A stretch of 28,839 bases of DNA from Candidatus Kaiserbacteria bacterium. GTDB lineage: Bacteria; Patescibacteriota; Minisyncoccia; Phycocordibacterales; Phycocordibacteraceae. The notes beneath the pieces were generated by a model that did no database searches, had not been told where the DNA came from, and saw only the letters and a list, made by a program, of their open reading frames with translations. Position numbers and translations under genes: made by a program. The stretch spans positions 1-28,839 of the forward strand of contig QIHK01000066.1 of NCBI GenBank assembly GCA_003230945.1, read 5' to 3'. Every line of letters begins with the position of its first letter. The first letter of the stretch is position 1. Positions 2,554 through 15,104 of this stretch are shown one piece after another.

Positions 2554-4231
2554 TCTCTCAACTGTCGGCACTACATGGCGTGTTTTGCGTGATATTGGCA
2601 ATATTATTCTTATATTTGGATTCTTGGCCATTGGTATTACGACCATCCTTCAAGTGAATTGGTATGGCGGTGGCAAAAAAATGATTCCGATACTTTTAGT
2701 GGCTGCAGTATTTCTTAATTTTTCACTTTTTATATCTGAAGCAGTTATTGATACTGGAAATCTTTTTGCAACACAATTCTATACACAAATAAATGGTGGT
2801 CAGCCCGCAAGTGCGGCTATCACATCCAATAGCATACAGAACGAAGGCATATCAAATAAAATAATGTCGCAACTTGGCCTTGCGACTATATATGGGGAAG
2901 CGCAGAATAACACTTTTTCCCTTTCAGCAAGTAGCTCATGGTTTACAGGATTCATGGGTATTATATTATTTTTGGTTGCTGCGATGGTGATGTTTTCTCT
3001 TGCAATTATCCTTATTATTCGATTTGTTATCCTCATCTTTCTTATTATTGTCGCTCCGATTGGATTTGCTGGGCTTGCTGTTCCAAAACTCGCCAGTGTA
3101 GCGAATTCATGGTGGAGCGAGCTTTTTAAACAAACAATAATAGCACCTATTTTACTTCTCATGCTTTATATAGCACTCAGAGTTATTACAGATGTTAATT
3201 TTCTTAGTTCATTTGGAGTGAAAGATAGTGCGACAGCTGCGGCTGCATGGTCGGGTACGCTAACTGGTAATTCCACTAATTTTTCAGGGATACTCCTTTC
3301 GTTCCTTGTTGCCATGGGTCTTCTTTTGGCTGTTACCTATTTTGCTAAACGTCTCGGTGCCACCGGCGCTAATTGGGCTACTAGTATGGGTAGTAAACTT
3401 TCTTTTGGGCTCACTGCAGCATCTACTAGTTATATGATGCGGCATACAATCGGTCGCGGTGCTAATCGTGCTAGAAATTATGTTAAAAAAACTTCATTCG
3501 GACAGTCAGAAATGGGACGGCATTTGTCGGGTGCTTTAAATTATGGTGCAAAAGCGAGTTATGATTTTCGTGGACCAAAGATAGCATCAAAGGGATTAAG
3601 GGCTGCAGGTATTGACGCAGGTACGGCAACAAAAGGCGGTTTTAAAGGATCGCTTGAAAAGGGGGTCAAAGCGCGTGTGGATTATGGAAATAGTCTTAAA
3701 CGGTCAAAAAAGCAGGAAGAGGCTCTGAAATCTGCGGAAGCGCAAAAAGAAGAACACAAAGAGAATTACCAGAGAACTAAATCTGGCCTTGAATCAGAAC
3801 ATGAGGCACAGCTCAAATCTCATAATGAAGGAATTGAAAAACAAAAAGAAAGAATTTCTACATTGGAAAAATTAAGAGATAAACAGCACCCATTTTTTAG
3901 TGAAGAATCTCTCAATGAAGCAAAAACTGCTCTCAAGAAGGAAAATAAATCTCGTGAGGATTTACAAAATATACAAAAGGAAGCAATTAAAGAACTTAAT
4001 GAGTCTTATAAAAAAGGTAAAAAAGATATTCAAGGAATTATTGAGTCTCGTAAAAGAGCACCGCAGGAGAAATATGTAAAAAGTTTGCATGGGTTCCTTT
4101 CCTCATTTGCTCGCTCGAGTGGAGAAGCTGCTCATAAAATTATTAAAAATGAAGTAAAAAAAGGTTTATCTGATGAAGATCTTGGGAAAATAGCAAAACT
4201 TTTTAAAGAAACTGATGAGCAAAAAACATAA
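2450..4231 (+). CDS. C-terminal fragment of the VirB6-like gene (multi-TM core + charged coiled-coil tail)
   Basis: Long ORF with many TM segments followed by a K/E-rich tail. The TTG start at 2450 is probably not real, and an in-frame ATG lies at 2534. Confidence 0.65.
   Translation: MHGFLVLLLFFSIAALLLDYSVYYTVVHMGTITNNLSTVGTTWRVLRDIGNIILIFGFLAIGITTILQVNWYGGGKKMIPILLVAAVFLNFSLFISEAVIDTGNLFATQFYTQINGGQPASAAITSNSIQNEGISNKIMSQLGLATIYGEAQNNTFSLSASSSWFTGFMGIILFLVAAMVMFSLAIILIIRFVILIFLIIVAPIGFAGLAVPKLASVANSWWSELFKQTIIAPILLLMLYIALRVITDVNFLSSFGVKDSATAAAAWSGTLTGNSTNFSGILLSFLVAMGLLLAVTYFAKRLGATGANWATSMGSKLSFGLTAASTSYMMRHTIGRGANRARNYVKKTSFGQSEMGRHLSGALNYGAKASYDFRGPKIASKGLRAAGIDAGTATKGGFKGSLEKGVKARVDYGNSLKRSKKQEEALKSAEAQKEEHKENYQRTKSGLESEHEAQLKSHNEGIEKQKERISTLEKLRDKQHPFFSEESLNEAKTALKKENKSREDLQNIQKEAIKELNESYKKGKKDIQGIIESRKRAPQEKYVKSLHGFLSSFARSSGEAAHKIIKNEVKKGLSDEDLGKIAKLFKETDEQKT
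2468..2505 (+). repeat. Perfect 19-bp tandem duplication causing a frameshift
   Basis: ttgctgctcttcttctcga at 2468-2486 and 2487-2505. 19 mod 3 = 1. Confidence 0.95.
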
Positions 4232-14218: not shown

Positions 14219-14584
14219 ATGACGGAAACGAAAACAAAGCGAGCTCCGAAGAAGAAAAAGACAGAAGCCGCGCCCGTGGAGCACAAGCTACGCATTCGCA
14301 TTCGCGCGTACGAGCATAAAATTCTTGATCTTTCGGTGAAGCAAATTATGGACACTGCCGCACGTTTTGAGGCGACGGTTGTTGGTCCAGTACCGCTTCC
14401 AACTGAGATTAAGCGCTGGACAGTGAATCGATCGACTTTCGTTCATAAAGACGCACGCGAACAATTTGAGATGCGTATTCATAAGCGTCTCGTTGACATT
14501 ATGAACCCTGAGCCAAAAGTTATTGAGGCTCTCACGAATCTTAATCTTCCTTCGGGTGTCACTATCGACGTCAAGATGGTCTAG
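14219..14584 (+). CDS. rpsJ: 30S ribosomal protein S10 (Lys-rich N-terminal extension)
   Basis: LRIRIRAYEH, GPVPLPT and REQFEMRIHKRL motifs. Confidence 0.99.
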   Translation: MTETKTKRAPKKKKTEAAPVEHKLRIRIRAYEHKILDLSVKQIMDTAARFEATVVGPVPLPTEIKRWTVNRSTFVHKDAREQFEMRIHKRLVDIMNPEPKVIEALTNLNLPSGVTIDVKMV

Positions 14585-14600
14585 GAACTCTCGAATAGAT

Positions 14601-14636
14601 AAACAAAAACCGCTCTTAATAGAGCGGTTTTTGTTT
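14601..14636. terminator. Bidirectional intrinsic terminator after rpsJ
   Basis: aaacaaaaaccgctct / taat / agagcggtttttgttt, a 16-bp perfect stem with A/U tracts on both sides. Confidence 0.85.
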
Positions 14637-14641
14637 TCCAC

Positions 14642-14670
14642 TTGTGTAGCTTTGAACGAGCGGTTAGAAT
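14642..14670 (+). promoter_or_regulatory. Putative sigma70 promoter reading into the rpsJ-rplC interval
   Basis: TTGTGT (14642-14647) - 17 nt - TAGAAT (14665-14670). Confidence 0.5.
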
Positions 14671-14676
14671 AAGAAA

Positions 14677-14850
14677 TGAGGGCATACGATTTGGATACCG
14701 AAGAGGAGGGATGATTCCCAAGGCCTACGCCCCACGCCTACTGCAGATATTCTCGGATAGCCCAAATATAGAGAACAAAAAAACGCGGCGCGGGGCCGCG
14801 ATTTATAGTTTTCGAGCCTCGGAACAACTACGGTTGTACCGGGGTTTTTC
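14677..14850 (+). ncRNA. Candidate ~175-nt structured RNA of unknown family
   Basis: Bounded by the promoter above and a C(UACG)G hairpin (14817-14844) + UUUUU. Internal helices atttgg/ccaaat, ccga/tcgg, ggga-tgat-tccc and cgcggc/gccgcg. Confidence 0.4.
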
Positions 14851-14989
14851 ATATAAAACATAAGAATTATACTAAAGATTTTTGAAACTAGATTTGCCTT
14901 TCATAGAAAATATAAATGAGTTTCTATCCCCAATATCCTAAGATGTCATCTTAAGCACCCTATCTTAGGGGATGGGGAGGGTGTTATTG

Positions 14990-15018
14990 TTGCGTCTTCC
15001 TGTTTCCTAGTGTAGTGT
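14990..15018 (+). promoter_or_regulatory. Putative promoter for rplC-rplD-rplW-rplB
   Basis: TTGCGT (14990-14995) - 17 nt - TAGTGT (15013-15018). Confidence 0.55.
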
Positions 15019-15056
15019 GCATGAGACGCTATGTACGGCATTTAGCCGGACCAATG

Positions 15057-15094
15057 GCAAATCGCGCCACGCGATTTGTTGTGGCGCGATTTGC
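15057..15094 (+). promoter_or_regulatory. rplC leader hairpin (14-bp perfect stem, alternative pairing possible)
   Basis: gcaaatcgcgccac / gtggcgcgatttgc. The loop contains a second gcgatttg copy, and the stem ends 10 nt before the ATG. Confidence 0.6.
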
Positions 15095-15104
15095 TTTAAC
15101 TTAC

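Follow-up and report, generated by a model that had tools for sequence, protein, structure and literature searches.

Several described classes of RNA resemble the element that we analyze here. The orphan structured non-coding RNAs (motifs of the Weinberg/Breaker type, such as raiA, which were discovered by comparing intergenic regions across genomes) and the trans-encoded small RNAs are intergenic and have their own promoter and intrinsic terminator, and the Weinberg/Breaker-type motifs combine a multi-helix, covarying fold with invariant nucleotides in their loops and junctions. The S10-operon leader of E. coli, which is an attenuator mediated by L4, is alike in size (about 170 nt), in having several hairpins and a terminator hairpin, and in its proximity to the genes for L3, L4, L23, and L2. 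The RsaE/RoxS-type small RNAs of Firmicutes have an invariant run of C in a hairpin loop and a Rho-independent terminator, and 6S RNA has a similar length. To our knowledge, almost nothing has been described about the non-coding RNAs of the CPR (Patescibacteria) beyond the universal ones.

Our element differs from each of these. It matches none of the 4227 models in Rfam 15 in sequence or structure and has just four known members, all from one CPR genus, which sets it apart from the Weinberg/Breaker-type motifs. In E. coli, the leader follows the operon promoter and precedes rpsJ, whereas our element lies after rpsJ and before the promoter of rplC; moreover, over 98% of the genus lacks our element. 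Compared to the RsaE/RoxS-type RNAs, it has one C-rich loop only and folds in a much more elaborate way; it is not homologous to them, and we could find no G-rich target for it. And it lacks the rod with a central bubble that characterizes 6S RNA: the 6S model (RF00013) gave no match, and the consensus fold consists instead of a junction domain and two hairpins.

The window (the whole stretch of 28,839 nt that was analyzed) comes from a Candidatus Kaiserbacteria (CPR) assembly of 570 kb in 76 contigs. The rpsJ-rplC junction is fixed in most bacteria. In the window, this gap is 520 nt, while the order's other families have 37-167 nt, so the preliminary description of this DNA was right to place an inserted RNA there. 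We propose that positions 14678-14849 of the forward strand form a stand-alone gene whose product is a structured small RNA (about 172 nt), and from the sequence comparisons we put the probability of this at about 0.7. The features of the region, in window coordinates, are:

14202: end of tuf
14219-14584: rpsJ
14601-14636, + strand: rpsJ terminator hairpin, palindromic, with a 16-bp stem; upstream of the RNA gene and separate from it
14633-14670, + strand: promoter region, with the conserved GTTTTCCAC followed by the -35 box, a 17-nt spacer, and the -10 box
14642-14647, + strand: -35 box, TTGTGT
14665-14670, + strand: -10 box, TAGAAT, 17 nt from the -35 box
14678-14849, + strand: predicted small RNA, about 172 nt, from GAGGGC (putative 5' end) to U5 (3' end)
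14689-14767, + strand: 5' domain, a three-way junction
14689-14706 with 14749-14767, + strand: long irregular helix, enclosing two hairpins
14689-94 with 14762-67, + strand: helix P1
14696-701 with 14753-59, + strand: helix P1b
14703-06 with 14749-52, + strand: helix P1c
14708-14719, + strand: hairpin P2, enclosed by P1, P1b, and P1c
14722-14738, + strand: hairpin P3, also enclosed by P1, P1b, and P1c, with the C-rich loop UACGCCCCA (invariant as ACGCCCCA)
14741-14746, + strand: junction palindrome, CUGCAG
14771-14813, + strand: the P4 part, whose stem is 14771-78 with 14806-13 and which carries the GC hairpin
14784-14800, + strand: invariant GC hairpin, followed by AUUU
14817-14849, + strand: intrinsic terminator, with 11 bp and one internal mismatch, a UACG tetraloop (hairpin 14817-14844), and U5 (14845-14849)
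14777-14783 in plus-strand coordinates, - strand: A-run that, with a hairpin, forms a minus-strand hairpin plus U7
14866-14871 in plus-strand coordinates, - strand: TATAAT, proposed antisense promoter, not conserved
14850-14924: AT-rich spacer between the RNA's terminator and the REP-like repeat
14925-14985, strand not assigned: REP-like repeat, located past the RNA (and outside it) and ahead of the rplC promoter
14990-95 and 15013-18, + strand: rplC operon promoter, TTGCGT-N17-TAGTGT
15019-15104, + strand: rplC leader, about 85 nt, with a long hairpin at 15055-15094
15105: ATG start of rplC

Within the genus, the rpsJ-rplC gap can be as short as 151 nt or exceed 1500 nt, and the gaps that we compared (L008-L026) contain unrelated ORFs, from 60 to more than 460 amino acids long, that depend on the species, each of them 3' of the rpsJ terminator. 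Because the lengths vary and the ORFs are unrelated in different species, the junction is, judging from these genomes, a hypervariable slot in this genus, or a hotspot for accessory cassettes inside the ribosomal protein cluster. Hairpins equivalent to the rpsJ terminator hairpin were found 3' of rpsJ in the relatives as well. Part of the enlargement of the gap in the window is due to the REP-like repeat. This palindromic repeat of about 45 nt (CTAAGATG-N-CATCTTA plus CTATCTTAG) has five copies in the genome (window 14925-14985; G000:C12:3076-3163 and 3845-3881; G000:C5:11858-11889; G000 is the window's own genome). A gene for a Y1/IS200-like transposase of 223 amino acids (C12:3169-3840; Pfam Y1_Tnp, E = 1.5e-6) is flanked by copies in opposite orientations, so that the repeat and the transposase look like a REP element with its RAYT.

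Using blastn and covariance models, we found the same unit of promoter, RNA, and terminator upstream of rplC in two other genomes (G083 and G104) and in a metagenome contig (Ga0209066_10003570, or L051). These three homologues score 146-209 bits, and the covariance model hits overall score 137-209 bits. All four known copies are from the same CPR genus, and all are upstream of rplC on the same strand. The RNA is present in 3 of the 259 genomes of the family, and a covariance model search found it in none of 150 genomes from across the order. Two scans of viral contigs with covariance model rescoring, and blastn against phages, gave no match. The layout in L051 is that of the window, and the -35 box of rplC is about 25 nt after the RNA's terminator. 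In G104, the gene upstream of the RNA is a sugar transferase instead of rpsJ. In the L3 tree, a single origin (vertical descent with losses) is not told apart from transfer of a cassette, and the accessory genes of the window do not co-occur informatively with the RNA.

In G083 and G104, an orphan gene of 157-160 amino acids lies directly after the RNA, between it and rplC (L038:1739-2218 in G083 and L039:828-1298 in G104). It has its own promoter-like site, and the differences between its two copies by codon position (43/27/75) indicate purifying selection. It matches no Pfam family, and in a set of 5.8 billion protein clusters it has just 2 members. The structure predicted for it is of low quality (mean pLDDT of 63.9), and no fold matched this model with an E-value of 0.001 or less.

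The preliminary description had read a TTGTGT-N17-TAGAAT promoter ahead of the RNA, and the homologues agree with this: the register is kept in all four sequences, with TTGTGT, TTGTGA, TTGCCG, or TTCACG as the -35 box, 17 nt of spacer, and TAGAAT or TACAAT as the -10 box. GTTTTCCAC is invariant ahead of the promoter in all four. The -35 box in the window is weak (3 of 6 positions match the consensus), which is why a simple promoter scan, with its threshold, does not list this promoter; what supports it is that its position is conserved in four sequences. The RNA itself is conserved from an invariant 5'-GAGGGC onward, 6-7 nt after the -10 box in each of the four sequences. This is where a transcript from that -10 box would be expected to start, and we infer that GAGGGC (14678) is the 5' end of the RNA.

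At the other end, the C(UACG)G hairpin followed by U5 that had been proposed as a terminator is present, and the homologues have UUCG-capped stems in its place, with compensatory changes in the apical part, followed by U4-5. The long irregular helix and the two small hairpins, one with a C-rich loop, were likewise located where they had been described. We aligned the four sequences and wrote a consensus structure of 39 pairs by hand. In this structure, 94.8% of the pair cells are standard pairs, as compared to 30-55% if the register is slid. Seven pairs are changed on both sides across the four sequences: helix 1 (96.9% paired) has four pairs that are changed in this way, and P2 and P3 have one each. 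None of 500 shuffles reached the observed covariation score, but this control overstates the support, as there are just four sequences and two of them are close sisters; covariation has little statistical power for the same reason. Thus, the conserved fold has good qualitative support from the alignment that falls short of statistical proof. The window and L051 differ from each other by at least three of the double changes. As neither of these two has the orphan ORF, the fold appears to be selected independently of that neighbor.

The same helices of the 5' domain were recovered when each of the four sequences was folded alone (minimum free energy). The fold z-score of the RNA region is -4.35; by strand, the z-scores are -3.6 for the plus strand and -1.3 for the minus strand, and the plus strand has the lower folding energy in 4 of 4 sequences. 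The fold is specific to the plus strand, because many of its pairs are G-U pairs, which become C-A mismatches on the minus strand. Within P4, a block of 21 nt that comprises the GC hairpin and the AUUU is identical in all four species. We also noticed that the junction palindrome CUGCAG is CUCGAG in G104. Because the central two bases are swapped, the palindrome remains self-complementary; this could hint at dimerization of the RNA, or it could be chance, as it is a single event.

The element does not appear to encode a protein. Its variable columns are distributed as 19/16/12 across codon positions 1, 2, and 3, with no excess at the third position (unlike the neighboring orphan gene), and the copies differ by indels of 5, 3, 2, and 1 nt, across which the reading frames are not homologous. 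None of nine candidate ORFs across the element was found in a collection of 15 billion proteins.

Nor does it belong to a known class of RNA. The preliminary description could not match it to tRNA, tmRNA, SRP RNA, or RNase P RNA, and our searches bear this out. No Rfam 15 family matched anywhere in the window at its gathering score, and with the limit relaxed to E = 10, the hits inside 14642-14871 were just noise (E = 0.07-5.5, with 12-21 bits versus cut-offs of 50-80). ARAGORN found no tRNA or tmRNA genes in the window. The RNase P RNA (RF00010) of this genome is elsewhere, at C53:2114-2497. The element had no match to the SRP RNA models (RF00169 and RF01854), and a universal RNA would not be confined to 3 of 259 genomes of the family; more broadly, it is too rare to be a housekeeping RNA. 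As a side note, SRP RNA (RF00169) was not detected in the window's own genome or in G083, G104, G017, G024, or G006, two of which are complete or nearly so, and the large SRP model (RF01854) had no match in the window's own genome. Possibly, the models miss it because SRP RNA has diverged too far in this genus. Also, the 23S rRNA match in this genome (G000:C12:10314-14066) spans 3753 nt, versus 2925 positions in the model, pointing to about 0.8 kb of inserted sequence. The assembly contains no 16S rRNA.

The predicted transcript has what one would expect of a trans-encoded small RNA: its own promoter, its own terminator, no coding capacity, and conservation. Our verdict is that it probably represents a new small RNA family with a narrow distribution (four species), which agrees with the earlier suggestion of an undescribed small RNA: on the plus strand, there is a discrete unit from promoter to terminator, with a covarying structure and no Rfam match.

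The main rival is that the element acts in cis, as a leader, attenuator, or riboswitch. Transcripts from an upstream promoter would stop at the terminator or read through it depending on a ligand or ribosomal protein, and read-through would add to the expression of rplC-rplD-rplW-rplB or, in G083 and G104, of the orphan ORF. This would account for the constant linkage to rplC (4 of 4 copies are upstream of it, on the same strand), and a junction domain followed by a terminator is reminiscent of riboswitch architecture. Also, CUCGG occurs in both the 3' strand of P1b and the 5' arm of the terminator, so an alternative pairing is conceivable. However, rplC has its own promoter and leader beyond the terminator. 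These are present in all of the relatives that have the RNA, and they are homologous in relatives from the genus that lack it (for instance, those with gaps of 151-216 nt). With the rplC promoter (14990-15018) downstream of the RNA's terminator, the RNA is not an rplC leader of the S10/L4 type, and the antisense-controlled attenuator of the L3-L4-L23-L2 unit that had been suggested does not hold up as stated. Furthermore, the gene that is immediately downstream varies: in two of the homologues, the orphan gene with its own promoter-like site intervenes before rplC, and the other two copies have no such gene. This does not fit a riboswitch, and neither does the terminator: its stability is very high (10-12 bp, UUCG-type cap), and we saw no conserved antiterminator for it. 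We also considered mimicry of rRNA, but blastn-short against the genome found no similarity to its 23S rRNA. The duplex energies between the RNA and the rplC leader were no better than those of shuffled sequences, although this method over-extends on long RNAs. Given the separate promoter of rplC, the variable downstream gene, and the stability of the terminator, we consider a role in cis to be unlikely. If ribosomal proteins do regulate this operon, then the rplC leader is a better candidate for their autoregulation than the RNA is. The leader is conserved across the genus, as is its long hairpin, which shows covariation; after the hairpin comes UGCUUUAA, which we take to resemble a boxA/Nus-factor site.

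The preliminary description also raised the possibility of a sense-antisense pair, in which an antisense RNA of about 85 nt, running from the minus-strand TATAAT (14871) to the hairpin and U7 (14777), would control the plus-strand RNA or its terminator. Both of these minus-strand signals exist in the window, where the GC hairpin looks bidirectional on account of the A7 and the U-rich flanks, but neither of them is present in G083, G104, or L051. In the homologues, the A-run is replaced by U6 or by GACGUUU, and the sequence past the terminator cannot be aligned. There is no -35 box on the minus strand, and the conserved fold, being rich in G-U pairs, is specific to the plus strand. The signals stand as a description of this one sequence, but nothing supports the pair, which we think is quite improbable. 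The confinement of the antisense signals to the window, and the lack of a conserved ORF, also speak against a pair like those of type I toxin-antitoxin systems.

Least probable of all, to the point of being far-fetched, is that the element is a functionless remnant of an old cassette or a mini-gene for one of the open frames of 65-100 amino acids that cross it: the slot does turn over rapidly, and one frame per strand is free of stops in some or all copies, but at 73-80% identity the copies still show compensatory changes and invariant loops, and the coding evidence given above is against these frames.

Returning to the stand-alone small RNA, we can sketch how it might work. As an accessory cassette, it would occupy the variable slot that separates the rpsJ terminator from the rplC promoter. 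Its own promoter, of the sigma-70 type, would drive its transcription, its strong intrinsic terminator would stop it, and the folded RNA would presumably act in trans. The invariant tracts that are predicted to be single-stranded are the 5' GAGGGC, the loop ACGCCCCA, AUAGCCC, and the hairpin loop GCGGG. The G-rich tracts (GAGGGC and the GCGGG loop) probably make tertiary contacts with the C-rich ones (ACGCCCCA and AUAGCCC), which could take the form of helices, and GCCCC with GGGGC is a candidate for such a contact. The tracts of all of these candidate pairings are invariant in the four sequences. Such contacts would form a compact domain that could bind a protein or a small ligand. A second option is that the RNA base-pairs with mRNAs through its C-rich loop. 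Our search of its own genome for antisense targets yielded only 11-13-mers, with the best complementarity at 12-13 nt, which is the level expected by chance. Invariant loops and junctions seem to be more like those of protein- or ligand-binding RNAs than of simple base-pairing small RNAs. A more speculative extension, which we regard as possible but doubtful, is that the element is a new class of compact, tertiary-folded RNA (binding a protein or ligand, or catalytic) and that it is an RNA-only cassette that travels among the hypervariable slots in the ribosomal protein operons of Kaiserbacteria.

In summary, this RNA is a cleanly delimited candidate for a CPR non-coding RNA, with a promoter, start, fold, and terminator that are each backed by comparison, its conserved structure is unusually rich, and its distribution is very patchy. 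Its practical value will be modest until a function or a partner is found. The analysis also identifies the rpsJ-rplC junction as a cassette slot in this genus. If the RNA is indeed a travelling RNA-only cassette, then these minimal genomes would exchange accessory RNA genes as they do accessory protein genes.
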